Source: Shigella phage ESh36. From it: a stretch of DNA of 64,000 nt. The position numbers and the translations under genes were made by a program. Location: sequence record ON528746; one strand, written 5' to 3'. This document shows positions 9,141-55,370 of the stretch, one piece after another. Within the stretch, counting starts at the first letter, position 1, and every line of letters starts with the position of its first letter. A model generated the notes under the pieces. The model worked only from the letters and a program-made list of their open reading frames with translations, did no database searches and was not told the origin of the DNA.

Positions 9141-9560
9141 TTATTCCTTAAAGTGAGCTTTCAACATCTGATACAAGGACCATGCTTGTTCATTATTTTC
9201 AATAGTAACTTTCATGATCGGGAATTCTGTGAAATCTTCTATTTGTTCTTGCTCTTCCTGCTCTTGCTCTTCAGCTGCCTGATATGGATTTTCCACTTCA
9301 TCAAAGAACCCAGCTTCACTTTTTGAAAGCCAAATAAAGTCTTCATCCAAAACATCTTTACCAGAAGATAGTACTAAATTTCCAGTAGATGACAAAATTT
9401 TAATAGGACGCCCAAGAGCATCCACATCTAAAATTTTAAAAGGATGCATACCTAAACGGCGCGCATAGATTCCGTTATCAGTATGGTCTTTAATAAAATT
9501 TTCTTGAGCTTGTTTATTTTTAAATTGATACCATTTATTAACTTCAAATTTAATAGCCAT
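9141..9560 (-). CDS. hypothetical acidic protein (position of T4 goF)
   Basis: 139-aa ORF with [10 protein letters not shown] acidic run; assignment positional only. Confidence 0.35.
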
Positions 9561-9775
9561 TAATAAATTTCCTTCCAGTAAGTTGTACCGTCTTCAGTAA
9601 TTTCACGAAATACACCATAAATTGGCTGTTTATCACCGACTTTCTCATACACATAAACAGAAGTCAAGTGAGTAAACTTGCTAGTATGTTCCTTTTGAAC
9701 TACTACCAAATCTGGATCGAATAATACATCTTCAAATTCGTCATTAGTACAATTCTGAACAATTTTACGTTTCAT
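9560..9775 (-). CDS. cef: Cef-like small protein
   Basis: 71-aa ORF upstream of motB; size and position match recalled T4 cef. Confidence 0.5.
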
Positions 9776-9870
9776 TACAATTTCCTCATTAATTGAACAT
9801 TGGAGCGATGCATTTCAGAAGAGTATCAACACCTTTAGCGAATTTTCCATTTTATTCTCCAAGTTGTTTT

Positions 9871-9922
9871 CTATATCAGTAGTTGATATTGATATAGTAC
9901 CATAATCAACTACTGATGTATA
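9871..9922. repeat. inverted repeat (13-bp perfect arms, extended imperfect) in cef-motB intergenic
   Basis: atcagtagttgat ... atcaactactgat flanked by ctatat / atatag. Confidence 0.6.
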
Positions 9923-9947
9923 TAGTTTTATGAAAAAATTTTAAACT

Positions 9948-10436
9948 TTATGCATAGAGAGCTTTGCTGTAGTGTTTAATCCAACTTTCAGGAATGACTT
10001 TGTATGTTCCTAAAAATACCACGTTGTACAACTTAACGCCATCTTCTACCCACTGATCGGTAATGTATGCGCACATAGCACGAGTATAAACAGCCGCACC
10101 ATCATCTTTGATAAATTTAAATTCACAAGGAGCAATGAACTTAATAGCCTGACCGAGTTTCCACTTAAAGTCTACACCTACATGCGAAGTATCAATCGTT
10201 TCAATTCCTTTAGCAGGAACAGCTTTCAAAAACGCAGACTCAAGAAATTTCGCACGAACATAGCCAAACTGGGGTTTAGACTTTCCATCTTTAGGAATGA
10301 TACGCACTTTTACTTCAGAATCTTCATCTTTAACGCCGTGTTTAAGCTGAATGCTTACAATTTCGACCAATTTTCCTGCTGCTTTAGAACGGGATTTATC
10401 AGATACACGAGCAATTTCACCAATATTAATAATCAT
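9948..10436 (-). CDS. motB: MotB-like protein
   Basis: 162-aa ORF; size and position match T4 motB; preceded by early promoter. Confidence 0.6.
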   Translation of the reverse strand: MIINIGEIARVSDKSRSKAAGKLVEIVSIQLKHGVKDEDSEVKVRIIPKDGKSKPQFGYVRAKFLESAFLKAVPAKGIETIDTSHVGVDFKWKLGQAIKFIAPCEFKFIKDDGAAVYTRAMCAYITDQWVEDGVKLYNVVFLGTYKVIPESWIKHYSKALYA

Positions 10437-49670: not shown

Positions 49671-50018
49671 TTATAGCGTAATCCATTCTCGTATTGTCTG
49701 AGTTACTACACGTTCACGAGGTTCGACTAATTCAACAGTCGGAACTGCATAATACCAATCAGAATGGTAAGAACCTGAGCGAGATTCATTTACGGAAACA
49801 TGCACATTATGTTTTGGACTAAAATAAACACACTGACGATATTGGCATTTGCCGTCTTGCACCCAGTCTTCTATTTCGACAGGTTTAAGATAATCCGAAA
49901 AATCGAAATCATAGTTTTCTGAAAATGCATCATGGTCTTCGATGATTTCACTCAGAACTGCATCAACATCGTAAATCATATTTACCCCAATTTGACCATA
50001 CAATCGCCGTATTTCCAT
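49671..50018 (-). CDS. hypothetical protein
   Basis: 115-aa ORF. Confidence 0.45.
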   Translation of the reverse strand: MEIRRLYGQIGVNMIYDVDAVLSEIIEDHDAFSENYDFDFSDYLKPVEIEDWVQDGKCQYRQCVYFSPKHNVHVSVNESRSGSYHSDWYYAVPTVELVEPRERVVTQTIREWITL

Positions 50019-50197
50019 TTAGAAATAGACTTTTCACCATTAGAATAATAAACTTCGAGTTTAGCGCGGCCATTTTTAATTTGAATAACCTTTGCTGTCA
50101 TCAAAGTTCCATACCCATAATAAACTGCAACCTCATCACCCACATATACCGCGCTTCCGCGGTAGTCATGGATATAATCAGTTCCTTCGAGCATCAT
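49982..50197 (-). CDS. hypothetical protein
   Basis: 71-aa ORF. Confidence 0.4.
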   Translation of the reverse strand: MMLEGTDYIHDYRGSAVYVGDEVAVYYGYGTLMTAKVIQIKNGRAKLEVYYSNGEKSISKWKYGDCMVKLG

Positions 50198-50716: not shown

Positions 50717-51002
50717 ATCGGTGTTTACAATGACGACATTTATAACGAAGATTACTAGTCTGCCAATGAACTAATTGAACCTGTTCAGTTCCACATTCAG
50801 GGCAATTAGGAACGTTTTTAGAAGCCCTTTCGCGACGTTCAACCATGACCATTACAGAATCCCAATTAATAGGGCTGCTATAATCATCACAACCGTGAAT
50901 CTTTCCACGCATTTCCAGATCGTCTTCTTCACCAGCCATAATAATTTTAATTAGACTAGAATTACTTGAAGCTGCAATGTCTTCTAATAGACGCTTTTTC
51001 AT
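50688..51002 (-). CDS. zinc-finger small protein
   Basis: 104-aa ORF with CPEC...CRHC. Confidence 0.45.
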
Positions 51003-51925
51003 TTCAATACCTCAATAGCATTGCGTAAACCATTTGCTTTGGCGGTTAAAGCCTTAAGAACTTTAGTATGCTCTTCAATTTGTTTTTCAACTTCAATCAA
51101 ACGAGCATTGAGATATTCGCGTTCTTCTTTCATAGTATCATTTCCATGATTGGATTTTGGTGTAGGTTTAAATTCACTAGGGTCCTTTAATTTAATAACA
51201 AATTTAGTTTCAAACAGTGAAAGACCATAATTCGTATTATCATCAAAGGATTTGACTACATCCATATCAGATAATAACACGCGCAAATTATAAGCCAAAG
51301 AACTAATAGTTTCATTGTGTTTATTAGCTTCGCGTGGTTTCATATACGGAAGATTTTTATATATTTCATGCGGAGCACAAACAATAATTGACAATTCAAA
51401 TTGCCCATTCTGGGACGATGGAGTGAATTTAGCCGTAACCCAGTCTTTTACATTCACATTAATAGTACGGTTATCACCATGACAAAACAGTCTACGAGAA
51501 TGCTTAAAAAGCATATTCACGTTATTATTGAATTCGTGTGAAAATTCACTAGCAAATTTTTCTTTACTATCTTTAGAAAACCATTCTTCTAAATAAGTTC
51601 TTTTCACGTCGTTAATAATATTAAATGTAACAACACTAGCATTTGATACATTAGTCTCAATGTAGCTTGGATACATAAATTTTTTAACATTATTAACAGC
51701 TATCACAGAAGATAGTAATCGGGAACGTTTGAACCACTCGAGCAAAGAACCAAGAGAATGTGAATACGCATTTTGTGTATCTTTACAAATATGGTTTTCC
51801 CATCCAATATAGTCTAAAAAATCACGAAGAATATTATTGATTACTGCTCTGTGTCCGATCTGATAATTACGGTGTTTAGTAATAAGACTGTCAAAATAAT
51901 CAATATAATGTTTACGAGTTTTCAT
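50999..51925 (-). CDS. coiled-coil protein, tandem paralog 1 of 4
   Basis: 308-aa ORF; RSRLLS and LFKHSRRLFCHGDNRTI motifs plus C-terminal coiled coil. Confidence 0.5.
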   Translation of the reverse strand: MKTRKHYIDYFDSLITKHRNYQIGHRAVINNILRDFLDYIGWENHICKDTQNAYSHSLGSLLEWFKRSRLLSSVIAVNNVKKFMYPSYIETNVSNASVVTFNIINDVKRTYLEEWFSKDSKEKFASEFSHEFNNNVNMLFKHSRRLFCHGDNRTINVNVKDWVTAKFTPSSQNGQFELSIIVCAPHEIYKNLPYMKPREANKHNETISSLAYNLRVLLSDMDVVKSFDDNTNYGLSLFETKFVIKLKDPSEFKPTPKSNHGNDTMKEEREYLNARLIEVEKQIEEHTKVLKALTAKANGLRNAIEVLK

Positions 51926-51977
51926 GTTCTTCTCACTTGGTTAATGATTTATACTCCGAGCCATCCTTGGCTTTAAA

Positions 51978-52979
51978 TTACTTAATTAACTGTAAAGCTT
52001 GTTCCAAACGATCAAGGCGATTAACAGATTCTTCCCAAATCCTTTTAGCACTTTCATATTCTTTTTCTGCTTTATTTTTAATTTCTAAAGCTTCTTTATA
52101 AGCTTTTTCTAGTGCAATAACTTCTGGACGAATTTCTATTGGCTCAGGAGAATCATCGAGCCAATCCATCAATTCTTCAAGTGTGGTTTCTTCTTTAGGA
52201 GCATTCACAATTTCTTCACATTTCTTCTGATGAATTTCTTTATCTGTTAGTGAATAAGTACATTTCACTTCACGAAGACTAACTACAATTTTATATCCTT
52301 CCCAACCGCATATATTCTTAAAAGGATATGTATGAATATTTTCTACTGTTTCCATACAAAGTAGTGCAGTCTCTAATTGACGAGTTATATCGCTAGCAAT
52401 TGAGAAAAATTTATTGATGTTCTTTTGATTAGCTTCTGGTGTAAAAAATTCATAATTCACAAAAATAGCTGCTTTATTTTTATCAAGTTCATATTCTTTT
52501 ATGATAATCATATCAGAAGCCCAAGGATGAATTTGACGATAATCGCCATAACATAATTTAGAAGCTGATTTTAGAATCTGTCCTTTGAAAAGTCTGAAAT
52601 TACTGATCCAACGACGAGTAAAAATATTCTCAGGGTCTTCTTTATTATTAAGATGATATGAATTAACATCACCGAACCAATTATATCCTACTACATCTTT
52701 AGTTCGTTTAATTTCTTTCCCAAATTTACCAAGAATATCTTGGTTAACTAAATATGAAAGAAGACGAGACCCTTTAAAGGTTTCCTTAATATCATCTTTA
52801 TATTCGCGACTAGAAATTTTATGAACTTCATGAATAAATTTGCTGGAAGAAACAATACTTGCATCAGTATTATTGAGCCATTGATTGATAATGGAAATAA
52901 CGCTATTCTGACTAGACACAGGTTTAACTTTATCATCAATAACGCTATTGAATGATTTGATATATTCGTTACGAGTCAT
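51978..52979 (-). CDS. coiled-coil protein, tandem paralog 2 of 4
   Basis: Start at MTRNEYIK with early promoter upstream; GSRLLS and FRLFKGQIL...CYGDYRQI motifs. Confidence 0.5.
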   Translation of the reverse strand: MTRNEYIKSFNSVIDDKVKPVSSQNSVISIINQWLNNTDASIVSSSKFIHEVHKISSREYKDDIKETFKGSRLLSYLVNQDILGKFGKEIKRTKDVVGYNWFGDVNSYHLNNKEDPENIFTRRWISNFRLFKGQILKSASKLCYGDYRQIHPWASDMIIIKEYELDKNKAAIFVNYEFFTPEANQKNINKFFSIASDITRQLETALLCMETVENIHTYPFKNICGWEGYKIVVSLREVKCTYSLTDKEIHQKKCEEIVNAPKEETTLEELMDWLDDSPEPIEIRPEVIALEKAYKEALEIKNKAEKEYESAKRIWEESVNRLDRLEQALQLIK

Positions 52980-53007
52980 ATTAATCTCCTCAGTAGAAAG
53001 TAAGAAC

Positions 53008-53037
53008 ATTATACCACATCCTTGTGGCAAAGTAAAC
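53008..53037 (-). promoter_or_regulatory. T4-type early promoter
   Basis: GTTTAC, 18 bp, TATAAT; -35 overlaps upstream stop codon. Confidence 0.6.
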
Positions 53038-54059
53038 TAGTTTAGTGCATTTAGTGCATTGTTCAGTTTAGAACGTTGCTTTGTCAGATTTTGAACCCTT
53101 GACTGAGCTTGTTCTAACACCTTTTCAGTTTCTAGCACTTCATTGGTCGCTTTAACGAGTTCATCATCTACTGCCTTAAGAGACTTCTCAATCGCGTCAG
53201 CGTGCCATTTTTCTACAGGTTTAAAATTTGAATTTTCAGTAGGAAGAAAACTCACTTTATTAAGTTTACATGCATCTATATTGCTTGAGCTATACATCCA
53301 AAATTTAGGATCGTTTGATGAGTAATTGGATAAATTTAAGATATCTTGCACTTCCTGCTTTTTCTCTTGCGGGACTTCGTCCTTTCTCAAAAAATCGTAT
53401 TTAAATGAAACGAACATATCAAGTTCATATGTTGTTGTGTCTAATTTAAATCGTTCGAAATGCTGTGAAATCTTAGACTGAACAGTGGCAACAACATCCA
53501 TATACTTAAATGCTTCTGTCAACTGCGATTTAAGGCATTCGCAAATTGAAAGAGAATTTTTTGTATTAGGTTTAAAGCTAATTCGCGCAGTTCTGTTATT
53601 TTCTTTTAATGGTCTTACTTCCATCTGAAGAGTATAACCATCAAATTTCAGGTTCTTTAAGTTAATGTCAGAACCTTTTAATCGACTAGCAGTCGACAAA
53701 ATTTGCTTTAATTGTCTACGGAACAGAGCAATAAATCTCCATTCAATACGATAATGATTTGGATTGAAAAATCCAGATGATAAATCGACCTTACTTTGAC
53801 CAACACCTTGAACAAATAGAGGATTTTTATAATCAATAGTTTTACAGAAATCGGTGAGCTGTTCACGAGCAGTCATTTGAGTAATATACCCAGCTTCATT
53901 AAAATTACGCACCCATTCACTGCTGTTCAGATGTTTAAAGGCGTGAATGGAACAATTAACTTTATCAGGGTCTAAATTATTTTCACACAAAAATGTCATA
54001 ACATTACGAGTATCGCTGGCAGTACGAACCATATCTTCAATTTGAGAACGAGTTTTCAT
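53037..54059 (-). CDS. coiled-coil protein, tandem paralog 3 of 4
   Basis: 340-aa ORF; FIALFRRQLKQIL motif and C-terminal coiled coil. Confidence 0.5.
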   Translation of the reverse strand: MKTRSQIEDMVRTASDTRNVMTFLCENNLDPDKVNCSIHAFKHLNSSEWVRNFNEAGYITQMTAREQLTDFCKTIDYKNPLFVQGVGQSKVDLSSGFFNPNHYRIEWRFIALFRRQLKQILSTASRLKGSDINLKNLKFDGYTLQMEVRPLKENNRTARISFKPNTKNSLSICECLKSQLTEAFKYMDVVATVQSKISQHFERFKLDTTTYELDMFVSFKYDFLRKDEVPQEKKQEVQDILNLSNYSSNDPKFWMYSSSNIDACKLNKVSFLPTENSNFKPVEKWHADAIEKSLKAVDDELVKATNEVLETEKVLEQAQSRVQNLTKQRSKLNNALNALN

Positions 54060-54067
54060 GGTATTCC

Positions 54068-54976
54068 TTAAGATTTAAGTAAATCGACAATTTTAATTAA
54101 CTTTTCACGCTCAGATTTAGCTTTACTACTCAGTCCAGATAGTCTGAAAATTTCATCATCATATTGTTGAATAGAAATATTCAGCTCTTCAATTTGCTTA
54201 TTAAAATAATCAATTTGTTCAGAATGTTTTTCGTTACTACGAACTGGTGCAGGTTTTGTAGGCAATTTAGTTGAACTGGATTCATCCGGGCGATAAATTA
54301 AAATACAACTTGAACCAATCGGACATTTAGCACCAGACACATATTCTAATGTTCCGGCTTCTTTTAAAACTTCAAAAGCTAAACAGAGATGATGCCCCAT
54401 ATTGACATAATCTGTAGAGTGAGCTCTGATGTAATAATCATCTCCGCGAATACTAAATTTAAAGCATTTAAGGTCTTCTGTATTATTGGTCTTAAAAATC
54501 ATTTGTTTATCTAGACCTTTAGCTAATCGAGCGCCCAATGCTAATAATCGTCGTTGATTTTCCCACAAATCCGCAATCATTTGGTCAAATGATAATTTCG
54601 GCATTAGTCGACCATAAAGGTCATATCCTTTATTATAATTACGAAGGATTTCACTCGCGTTAATACGAGACAACGCTCCAATTTTATTAAGGGCTTTCAT
54701 AATGCGATTAGATAAAAGCATTCCAGACCCGTTTGTTCGTTGTAAATGTTTTTCTAATCCAAATCCAATATCAACTTTAAACTTATCTAAAATTTCAGCA
54801 TGAACATCTCTGTCAATAACATTCAAATCCAAAGTTGGGTTAAATCTATGAAAAAATTTATCTGGCTCTCCACGACGAAGTACAGTCCATTCATTTGATT
54901 TTTTATTAACTAAAGATTTAATTACTGCATTGACATTATTAATTACTACTGACATATTTTCCTCACTCAATTTCAA
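54068..54976 (-). CDS. coiled-coil protein, tandem paralog 4 of 4
   Basis: 302-aa ORF, similar architecture. Confidence 0.45.
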   Translation of the reverse strand: MKLSEENMSVVINNVNAVIKSLVNKKSNEWTVLRRGEPDKFFHRFNPTLDLNVIDRDVHAEILDKFKVDIGFGLEKHLQRTNGSGMLLSNRIMKALNKIGALSRINASEILRNYNKGYDLYGRLMPKLSFDQMIADLWENQRRLLALGARLAKGLDKQMIFKTNNTEDLKCFKFSIRGDDYYIRAHSTDYVNMGHHLCLAFEVLKEAGTLEYVSGAKCPIGSSCILIYRPDESSSTKLPTKPAPVRSNEKHSEQIDYFNKQIEELNISIQQYDDEIFRLSGLSSKAKSEREKLIKIVDLLKS

Positions 54977-55370
54977 TTTTACTAAATATACAGAATAAGA
55001 TGGAACAGACTATATAAGCACCACACACAGATTGAACTAATACCATTCCAAAGAACCAAACAATATTATCAAACAATGTCTGTTTTACGTCGAAAGGACG
55101 TAAACTTACAGTAATATTATCACCTTTTTCTATTGAAGAATACATCTCTGGGGAAATATATTCACTAAATCTATAACCGTCTTTTAGTTCATATACGGCA
55201 ATAAACGATAAACTAGACCCTTTTCCTTGTGTTCCTGTAATGGTATTAACTACAGTAACATCATAATCTTTATAATGCATATAATCATTAATTGCGTAAT
55301 AACCATATGCAACTACTACACATAAACAACATATCAATAAATTCAATCTTTTAATTATCAACCGTTTCAT
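54963..55370 (-). CDS. membrane protein
   Basis: 135-aa ORF with N- and C-terminal TM segments. Confidence 0.45.
   Translation of the reverse strand: MKRLIIKRLNLLICCLCVVVAYGYYAINDYMHYKDYDVTVVNTITGTQGKGSSLSFIAVYELKDGYRFSEYISPEMYSSIEKGDNITVSLRPFDVKQTLFDNIVWFFGMVLVQSVCGAYIVCSILFCIFSKIEIE

Follow-up and report, generated by a model that had tools for sequence, protein, structure and literature searches.

Four consecutive ORFs at positions 50999-54976 of a 64,000-nucleotide stretch of Shigella phage ESh36 (ON528746; hereafter the window) raise two questions: whether they descend from one gene, and whether they serve the phage against host defences. Both had been proposed in a preliminary description of this DNA. 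The window belongs to Tequatrovirus, whose genomes it matches at about 95% DNA identity, and the four ORFs are indeed consecutive, all on the minus strand. Judged from sequence, they are orthologues of T4 nrdC.3, nrdC.4, nrdC.5 and nrdC.6, names that were taken from RB32 and T4 annotations.

The nrdC.3 orthologue (50999..51925, minus strand) encodes 308 aa from the ATG at 51925, and the nrdC.4 orthologue (51978..52979, minus strand), its paralogue, encodes 333 aa from the ATG at 52979. Both gave full-length profile matches to phrog_1435 (E 5e-101 and 9e-162), with 92.5% and 87.7% aa identity to T4, respectively; the Pfam label of this nrdC.3/4 family, Phage_T4_Y04OP (PF26897), was seen only on the relatives P0056 and P0213. 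The nrdC.5 orthologue (53037..54059, minus strand; 340 aa, ATG at 54059) has nrdC.6 and nrdC.4 as its neighbours, an arrangement shared with T4 and RB32, and is equal in length and 90.6% identical in aa sequence to T4 NrdC.5. Its residues 1-340 matched positions 1-307 of the 307-position profile of Pfam DUF7235 (PF23882; E 1.7e-113, 379.6 bits, cut-off 30), and it was the only one of the four to match that family above the gathering score. The nrdC.6 orthologue (54068..54955, minus strand; 295 aa from the ATG at 54955) is the best conserved, with 97.3% aa identity to T4 and a full-length profile match to phrog_2257 (E 4e-151); its Pfam label, Phage_T4_Y05B (PF26899), was found on all 109 of its relatives. 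The lengths first listed for nrdC.3 and nrdC.5 hold, while those of nrdC.4 and nrdC.6 are reduced from 350 to 333 aa and from 302 to 295 aa.

The shorter form of nrdC.4 agrees with the T4 annotation, likewise 333 aa; its ATG has the ribosome-binding site GAGGAG, and the phrog_1435 match begins at residue 18 of the 350-aa ORF. The upstream ATG is overlapped by the -10 element of a conserved, predicted T4-early-type promoter for nrdC.4 (53008..53036, minus strand), which consists of TTTACT, a 17-nt spacer and TG-TATAAT, and which scored 10 of 12 in a consensus scan, with an extended -10. This promoter is kept in three genera where the flanking proteins are just 45-50% identical. Upstream of nrdC.3 (51926..51977, minus strand) lies a putative, degenerate copy of the early-promoter cassette, ATTTAA...CCAAGGATGG...GGAGTATAAA, followed by a ribosome-binding site. 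It aligns with the nrdC.4 cassette and with the one preceding the only nrdC.3/4-type gene of Mosig-, Gapriver- and Dhakavirus; as read from the sequences, the promoter cassette was duplicated together with the gene.

Whether all four genes are related was addressed by the all-against-all comparison that the preliminary description had called for. Direct BLASTP was marginal, with E values of 0.001 for nrdC.3-nrdC.4, 0.013 for nrdC.4-nrdC.5 and 0.008 for nrdC.5-nrdC.6 (21 aa only), and gave no match for the remaining pairs among the four. By hhalign, nrdC.3 and nrdC.4 matched with 96% probability (E 3e-9). With shallow profiles, a first hhalign comparison placed nrdC.3/4 against nrdC.5 at 61-77% and gave 3-34% for nrdC.6, values that are suggestive only. 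Later comparisons used enriched family profiles and were decisive: nrdC.3/4 matched nrdC.5 with 96.7% probability (E 4e-10, 222 columns), and a hub family X, whose members are relatives that occur as single copies in other T4-like phages, was matched by nrdC.5 (98.4%, E 5e-15), nrdC.6 (99.2%, E 7e-20) and nrdC.3/4 (95.7%). Against the Klebsiella-phage member, nrdC.3/4 reached 97.6%. Because direct profile comparisons with nrdC.6 were weak (13% against nrdC.5, 2.5% against nrdC.3/4), its membership was assigned by transitivity through X. The matches are co-linear and nearly full length, and a BLAST graph built at E<1e-5 with a minimum of 150 aa connects nrdC.3, nrdC.4 and nrdC.6.

The marginal or negative pairwise BLAST results and the weak direct comparisons with nrdC.6 might be taken to mean that helical, coiled-coil-like sequences resemble one another by chance or composition and not by common descent. 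We consider this very improbable, as the profile matches extend over the globular N-terminal and central regions, beyond the C-terminal helices (for example nrdC.3/4 residues 57-224 against X 86-221, and nrdC.6 residues 83-294 against X 88-339); 32 hhalign controls with reversed or unrelated sequences never fell below P 0.028; a co-linear alignment of 23 sequences has four motif blocks in common, in the same order; and the genes share a syntenic slot and a duplicated promoter. By co-linear profile-profile similarity, direct or via intermediates, nrdC.3, nrdC.4, nrdC.5 and nrdC.6 are thus one superfamily, so the proposed tandem paralogy of all four was upheld, and the lack of detectable similarity named beforehand as evidence to the contrary was not what we saw. 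The family is tiny, comprising 36 clusters among 1.84 billion proteins, and all members with a traced source come from T4-like phages, where the family occupies one syntenic slot in 1-4 copies. PHROGs and Pfam already hold nrdC.3 and nrdC.4 together but keep separate accessions for nrdC.3/4, nrdC.6 and DUF7235.

The short motifs quoted earlier were found, RSRLLS at aa 67 and GSRLLS at aa 70, as were the two MKTR starts (nrdC.3 and nrdC.5; nrdC.4 starts with MTR). A helix-turn-strand motif of the LFKHSRRLFCHGDNRTI type occurs in all four proteins, the nrdC.6 version being QRRLLALGARLAKGLDKQMIFKT. This core motif, a basic helix, a G-D/N-R turn and a strand, forms one aligned column block, encoded on the minus strand at 51449..51517 (nrdC.3), 52527-52598 (nrdC.4), 53643-53735 (nrdC.5) and 54488-54568 (nrdC.6); it is nearly invariant in nrdC.5 across Tequatrovirus, and over the whole superfamily one Arg only is near-invariant. 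A C-terminal module of about 55-60 aa, with P-x-P, helices and the end L..A...LK, is encoded at 51002..51166, 51981-52148, 53040-53222 and 54071-54256 of the same strand, in the same gene order; its Pro and its L-K end vary little or not at all between families.

AF2 modelled nrdC.6 with pLDDT 76 and pTM 0.63, and placed helices 245-271 and 277-294 as an intramolecular hairpin. The nrdC.5 model (26 sequences) was poor overall, and it was left out of fold searches on account of its pLDDT of 43; its order of secondary-structure elements resembles that of nrdC.6, and its C-terminal helices 282-339 (pLDDT 70-89) are the sole confident part. The C-terminal coiled coil of the preliminary description stands as a confidently predicted helical region. 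In a crude heptad test, nrdC.6 alone outscored all 200 shuffles, the scores of the other three being reached by 11, 7 and 19 of 200 shuffles. Because the heptad test was significant for nrdC.6 alone, we call an oligomeric coiled coil at the C-terminus plausible.

A helical module ...QR.KL..A...LK that closes all four proteins, and that in nrdC.5 coincides with the only confidently modelled part, together with adjacent, co-oriented genes whose junctions are 8 nt or overlapping, would also suit a hetero-oligomeric complex of all four held together by related C-terminal helices, with the anti-Dsr1 activity discussed below as one output. We hold this to be quite unlikely, given that plasmid-borne nrdC.5 by itself sufficed to rescue a T4 deletion mutant (PMC9391042), that in related phages the slot is filled by one, two or three copies, and that the modelled C-terminal helices of nrdC.6 pair within one chain.

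Foldseek searches with the nrdC.6 model returned full-length matches to two adjacent genes beside nrdC in Acinetobacter phage Acj61 and to proteins of five further T4-like phages (E 9e-7 to 7e-4, Acj61 included). Single Acj61 sequences gave no significant match to the family profiles, and the relationship is one that Foldseek and synteny, and these only, suggest. PDB sequence and fold searches found no solved-structure relative for the family, and searches of Pfam, NCBIfam and PADLOC found no family besides DUFs and no enzyme signature.

For function, the strongest evidence comes from T4. When T4 nrdC.5 was expressed, a T4 deletion mutant could again infect Dsr1-carrying cells (Srikant et al. 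2022, PMC9391042), and the gene is dispensable on laboratory E. coli, being required only when Dsr1 is present (PMC9391042). Dsr1 is triggered by the phage major capsid protein (PMC12803255). The window gene is a syntenic orthologue, 90.6% identical to the T4 gene used in that experiment. The anti-defence role proposed for the array is thus supported and, for this one member in its T4 form, borne out by experiment. The variable positions of nrdC.5 cluster in aa 1-60 and aa 180-280 and surround an invariant core, which suggests a possible seat of specificity in the variable segments. As 32 of 340 residues differ from T4, mostly in these segments, the specificity of the window NrdC.5 might differ from that of the T4 allele.

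The likeliest route is a direct block of Dsr1 by nrdC.5. Alternatively, Dsr1 could be defeated indirectly, by masking or delaying its trigger, by binding nucleic acid or by altering host physiology, the paralogues then being general host-takeover factors. The N-terminal parts are basic (pI ~9) in three of the four proteins, with a conserved Arg-rich helix, and according to a 2026 paper Dsr1 "remains poorly characterized", so there is room for such a route; we nonetheless think it unlikely, because nrdC.5 is needed only against Dsr1, has no nucleic-acid-binding or enzymatic domain recognisable by Pfam or NCBIfam, and in fold searches showed no likeness to any solved protein nor, among the PDB or BFVD matches listed, to a capsid protein. 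Mimicry was considered separately: capsid-protein mimicry was set aside since the PDB or BFVD matches listed contain no capsid protein, and DNA mimicry since none of the proteins is acidic, each being basic or neutral.

With the T4 counterpart of nrdC.5 switching off Dsr1, the other three paralogues are good candidates for similar jobs, and we infer an anti-defence role for them. A literature and UniProt name search found no functional study of nrdC.3, nrdC.4 or nrdC.6; in the searchable literature nrdC.3 and nrdC.6 were never named, and nrdC.4 appeared in a genome announcement only. This absence of a reported phenotype, along with natural losses and breaks (a fusion in P0056, a split gene in SP18, a truncated gene in DCP80), would fit an anti-defence role confined to nrdC.5, its paralogues having an unrelated function or none of importance. 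Several observations make this doubtful. Of 502 matching phage records, 461 keep 80% or more of the array, and dN/dS values of 0.20, 0.21 and 0.11 for nrdC.3, nrdC.4 and nrdC.6 indicate purifying selection. No other member is as widespread and as conserved as the nrdC.6 type. The three genes also share their island with nrdC.5, pin and gp49.2, the latter two about 1 kb from the array; Gp49.2 is an OLD inhibitor (PMC13096335), and the window carries its gene with 96% identity. Against an anti-defence role of nrdC.6 speaks its high conservation within Tequatrovirus, where 489 of 741 matching records lie at 95-99% identity, unlike what a typical arms-race gene would show. Selection on all four genes is purifying yet relaxed, with dN/dS of 0.11-0.31 compared to 0.00-0.06 for endoVII, nrdC and nrdC.8-.10.

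Taken together, we believe, with somewhat better than even confidence, that the four genes are tandem duplicates of one T4-like-phage gene and encode early, non-enzymatic anti-defence proteins, nrdC.5 acting against Dsr1 and the others against other targets. One ancestral gene gave rise to the four by tandem duplication, followed by divergence, and each product would be an early protein of the cytoplasm, non-enzymatic, with a helical domain at its N-terminus, then a small beta-alpha-beta domain and a variable linker, and finally the conserved C-terminal helical module. Dsr1 is a SIR2 NADase with a TPR sensor for the major capsid protein, and nrdC.5 would neutralise it, most likely by binding, so that it is off before late capsid protein appears; nrdC.3, nrdC.4 and nrdC.6 would most likely counter other defence proteins or other variants of Dsr1/Avs7-type sensors. 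To this reading our analysis contributes the paralogy, the orthology to T4 nrdC.5, the early-type promoters, the purifying selection and the lack of an enzyme signature. A bolder version, which we rate as improbable, is that the array forms a sensor-blocker toolkit, each paralogue tuned to another member of a large family of defence proteins with the capsid-sensing TPR sensor (Dsr1, Avs7 and relatives with nuclease or kinase effectors), and that copy number (1-4) tracks the range of host sensors.

Capsid protein is the cue for Dsr1 and for the related Avs7 sensors, and the T4 escape has been known only as a gene name, nrdC.5. Three adjacent paralogues under selection provide three specific genes that may carry new anti-defence functions, in a family that grows and shrinks in one genomic slot across T4-like phages and whose fold has no solved relative; they are also relevant to host-range prediction for T4-like therapeutic phages. 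As the genes have long been known, the new content is modest, and the gain from the four-way paralogy and from the promoter copy duplicated with its gene is incremental.

Compared to T4 NrdC.5 (DUF7235), the window gene is an orthologue with the same length, neighbours and Pfam family, differing by substitutions only, and the other three are direct orthologues of T4 NrdC.3, NrdC.4 and NrdC.6, the superfamily link with DUF7235 being what is new here. NAD+ reconstitution pathways (NARP1/2/3) offer no parallel, as no NAD-salvage enzyme domain was found with Pfam or NCBIfam. A conceptual analogue is DSAD1 of an SPbeta-phage, which reportedly blocks DSR2, a SIR2 NADase that responds to a late structural protein, by binding its sensor region; the targets differ, DSR2 in one case and Dsr1, with its TPR sensor for capsid protein, in the other, as does the host range. 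PDB sequence and fold searches revealed no similarity to DSAD1, returning no DSR2 or DSAD1 entry from library copies that may lack such entries. The T-even anti-defence islands (dmd-tifA-adfA against TA systems, Gp49.2 against OLD, and pin) likewise consist of small, early accessory genes that are directed at one host system each and dispensable in laboratory strains; what sets the array apart is that its four members are paralogues of one another, with no relationship to the other island genes compared here.

The 3,978-base stretch that holds the array (50999-54976) shares ~95% identity with numerous Tequatrovirus (T4-like) genomes, and at least 80% of it is present in 461 of 502 matching phage records. 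Using the annotations of RB32 and T4, its four minus-strand ORFs were named nrdC.3, nrdC.4, nrdC.5 and nrdC.6; they are flanked by nrdC.2 and nrdC.7, and endonuclease VII, pin, 49.x and nrdC lie upstream of the array. The ORF starts of the preliminary description were retained for nrdC.3 (308 aa) and nrdC.5 (340 aa), while those of nrdC.4 (333 aa) and nrdC.6 (295 aa) were moved to the ATGs at 52979 and 54955, respectively. The new nrdC.4 start has a GAGGAG ribosome-binding site just upstream, and the upstream ATG used in some annotations is overlapped by the -10 box of a predicted T4-early-type promoter (53036-53008, minus strand; TTTACT, 17 nt, TG-TATAAT). Between nrdC.9 and nrdC.10, RB32 additionally has a gene for a seg-like homing endonuclease (9404-10123 of its compared locus, L001) that neither the window nor T4 contains.

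Pairwise BLASTP similarity among the four proteins was marginal, with matches between nrdC.3 and nrdC.4 (E 0.001, 206 aa), nrdC.4 and nrdC.5 (E 0.013, 140 aa), and nrdC.5 and nrdC.6 (E 0.008, just 21 aa), and no BLASTP match for the remaining pairs. PHROGs places nrdC.3 and nrdC.4 together in phrog_1435 and nrdC.5 and nrdC.6 in two further families, and Pfam likewise has three families, DUF7235 (nrdC.5) and two whose labels, Phage_T4_Y04OP and Phage_T4_Y05B, were read on relatives; the paralogy of nrdC.3 and nrdC.4 is thus already in both databases. Profiles were built from orthologues taken from Mosigvirus, Gaprivervirus and Dhakavirus genomes and from protein searches. A combined four-family profile matched only 36 clusters at E ≤0.001 among 1.84 billion representative proteins, including X, a hub family of single-copy relatives in other T4-like phages (seven metagenomic proteins), a Klebsiella-phage protein (P0193) and a protein of Escherichia phage EcS1 (P0195). 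With the enriched profiles, hhalign linked nrdC.3/4 to nrdC.5 (96.7% probability, E 4e-10, 222 columns), to X (95.7%, E 9e-9) and to P0193 (97.6%, E 3e-12), and X to both nrdC.5 (98.4%, E 5e-15) and nrdC.6 (99.2%, E 7e-20). These matches were co-linear and spanned the globular parts as well as the C-terminal helices, and 32 controls with reversed profiles or unrelated neighbouring proteins gave P of at least 0.028. Direct hhalign comparison of nrdC.6 stayed weak, at 13% with nrdC.5 and 2.5% with nrdC.3/4, so that nrdC.6 is joined to the others transitively, through X. A BLAST graph (E <1e-5, at least 150 aligned residues) also joined nrdC.3, nrdC.4 and nrdC.6. The paralogous array proposed in the preliminary description, marginal by all-against-all BLASTP, is therefore clear from enriched-profile comparison, with nrdC.6 included by way of X. 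Members of this superfamily were traced to T4-like phages only, and we found no record in which all four proteins, with their three Pfam families, are linked as one superfamily.

An alignment of 23 sequences showed four blocks in a constant order, and every motif quoted in the preliminary description was found in the array proteins. Block 1 (S...A...L..FG helix) corresponds to its 'RLLS' motif and block 2 (basic helix, G-x-D/N-R turn, strand) to its 'LFKHSRRLFCHGDNRTI' motif, followed by a Q...AL helix (block 3) and a Pro with a ~55-aa helical module ending QR.KL..A...LK (block 4). The AF2 model of nrdC.6 was usable (pLDDT 76, pTM 0.63). In this model, helices span 3-146 and residues 165-221 form a beta-beta-alpha-beta-beta unit; after a disordered linker, 245-294 fold as a helical hairpin. 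In BFVD it gave full-length matches to seven proteins of 304-335 aa (E 9e-7 to 7e-4) from six T4-like phages of Acinetobacter, Enterobacter, Yersinia and Klebsiella, two of them being Acj61 neighbours that adjoin nrdC. The nrdC.5 model (pLDDT 43) was confident only in the C-terminal helix 282-339, and its low-confidence order of predicted elements resembles that of nrdC.6.

The intergenic DNA upstream of nrdC.3 (51926-51977, minus strand) aligns with the promoter cassette of nrdC.4, and also with the cassette that precedes the only nrdC.3/4-type gene of three other genera (loci L003-L006), which indicates that the duplicated unit was a promoter together with its gene. The cassette layout, GTTTAC...CCAAGGATGG...GGAGTATAAT...GAGGAG...ATG, is conserved before nrdC.4 and its other-genus counterparts, and the -35 and -10 boxes have decayed in the nrdC.3 copy. 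Within the cassette, CCAAGGATGG forms a conserved spacer element. This alignment is independent evidence for gene duplication, and no record of a duplicated promoter cassette was found.

The shared syntenic slot holds four copies in Tequatrovirus, three in Mosig-, Gapriver- and Dhakavirus and two in Acj61; a metagenomic T4-like phage, the Klebsiella F48 group and EcS1 each have a single copy. We found no record that the copy number at this fixed position ranges from one to four. The products of the four genes might assemble into one hetero-oligomeric complex, which, set beside the slots holding one, two or three copies, we consider quite improbable. Several atypical arrays were observed. For example, P0056, a protein from a 167-kb phage contig, is a natural chimera in which the middle of nrdC.5 (~aa 146-265) is joined to the C-terminal half of nrdC.3 at '...KFNKV|NMLFKH...', indicating a deletion that removed the C-terminus of nrdC.5, the whole of nrdC.4 and the N-terminus of nrdC.3, and that apparently occurred at a short stretch of similarity between nrdC.5 and nrdC.3. 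The nrdC.5-type gene of Shigella phage SP18 (L008 5956-6860) is present as two ORFs, and the nrdC.4-type gene of Escherichia phage DCP80 (L007 6920-7663; 141-kb record) is truncated and adjoins head genes; either certain genomes have lost or disrupted array members, or both cases are artefacts of assembly or rearrangement. In Shigella phage Sf25, the nrdC.6-family protein (P0075) has 378 aa compared to the usual ~296 aa and the nrdC.4 match lies in two pieces across ~1.25 kb, which suggests an insertion or rearrangement. Acj61, with its two-copy array, also carries nicotinamide phosphoribosyltransferase and ribose-phosphate pyrophosphokinase genes side by side (L009 1229-3938), a pair of the type that rebuilds NAD+ to counter NAD-depleting defences.

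Relative to T4, dN/dS was 0.20 for nrdC.3, 0.21 for nrdC.4, 0.31 for nrdC.5 and 0.11 for nrdC.6, compared to 0.00-0.06 for endoVII, nrdC, nrdC.8, nrdC.9 and nrdC.10, which indicates that all four genes are functional and evolve faster than those neighbours. Within Tequatrovirus, aa 60-180 of nrdC.5 are almost invariant and aa 1-60 and 180-280 variable; nrdC.4 and nrdC.5 alleles lie mostly in the 80-90% identity band, and nrdC.6 alleles in that of 95-99%. The neighbourhood maximum, 0.41, belonged to nrdC.7 (54963-55370, minus strand, 135 aa), which matched DUF7209 without significance (E 0.11) and whose equivalents elsewhere among phages carry the annotation putative membrane protein.

The four genes are long-known T4 ORFs, one of which has a published anti-defence phenotype. 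An evolved T4 clone carrying compensatory deletions was unable to plate on either ECOR17 or MG1655 with the ECOR17 dsr1 gene, and expression of T4 nrdC.5 restored infection by a deletion mutant on Dsr1-carrying cells (Srikant et al., eLife 2022, PMC9391042); nrdC.5 of the window is the orthologue of that T4 gene. Dsr1 is a SIR2 NADase defence that 'remains poorly characterized' according to a 2026 paper. The E. coli protein is reported to have a TPR sensor in common with Avs7 and to respond to a phage major capsid protein as its trigger (2026 preprint, PMC12803255). Nearby, the window encodes Gp49.2 (49671-50018, minus strand; 96% identity to the T4 protein), whose T6 counterpart inhibits OLD defence (PMC13096335, 2026), and the RB32 and T4 annotations place pin, a Lon inhibitor, at the equivalent position. 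With the anti-Dsr1 orthologue, these genes indicate that the stretch behaves as an anti-defence island. T4 gene 49.3 is apparently replaced in the window by a 71-aa ORF (49982-50197), as in RB32.

Judged by their homology and context, nrdC.3, nrdC.4 and nrdC.6 probably act against other defence proteins; that these three, functional as they appear, have no defence role seems unlikely to us. No enzyme or defence-system signature was found in the four proteins with Pfam, NCBIfam or PADLOC, they are not acidic, and a single Arg is the only near-invariant residue across the superfamily. We propose that they would be early, non-catalytic binding proteins, in which the conserved core and C-terminal helices may serve as a scaffold, possibly an oligomerisation module, and the variable segments may determine target specificity. 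NrdC.5 would then be there before the late capsid protein and hold Dsr1 inactive. The plating phenotype would also follow if NrdC.5 acted on Dsr1 indirectly, to which we assign a low probability; most likely NrdC.5 keeps Dsr1 inactive, most simply through binding, by analogy with DSAD1, the SPbeta-phage inhibitor of the DSR2 sirtuin defence, which serves as the model for this proposal.
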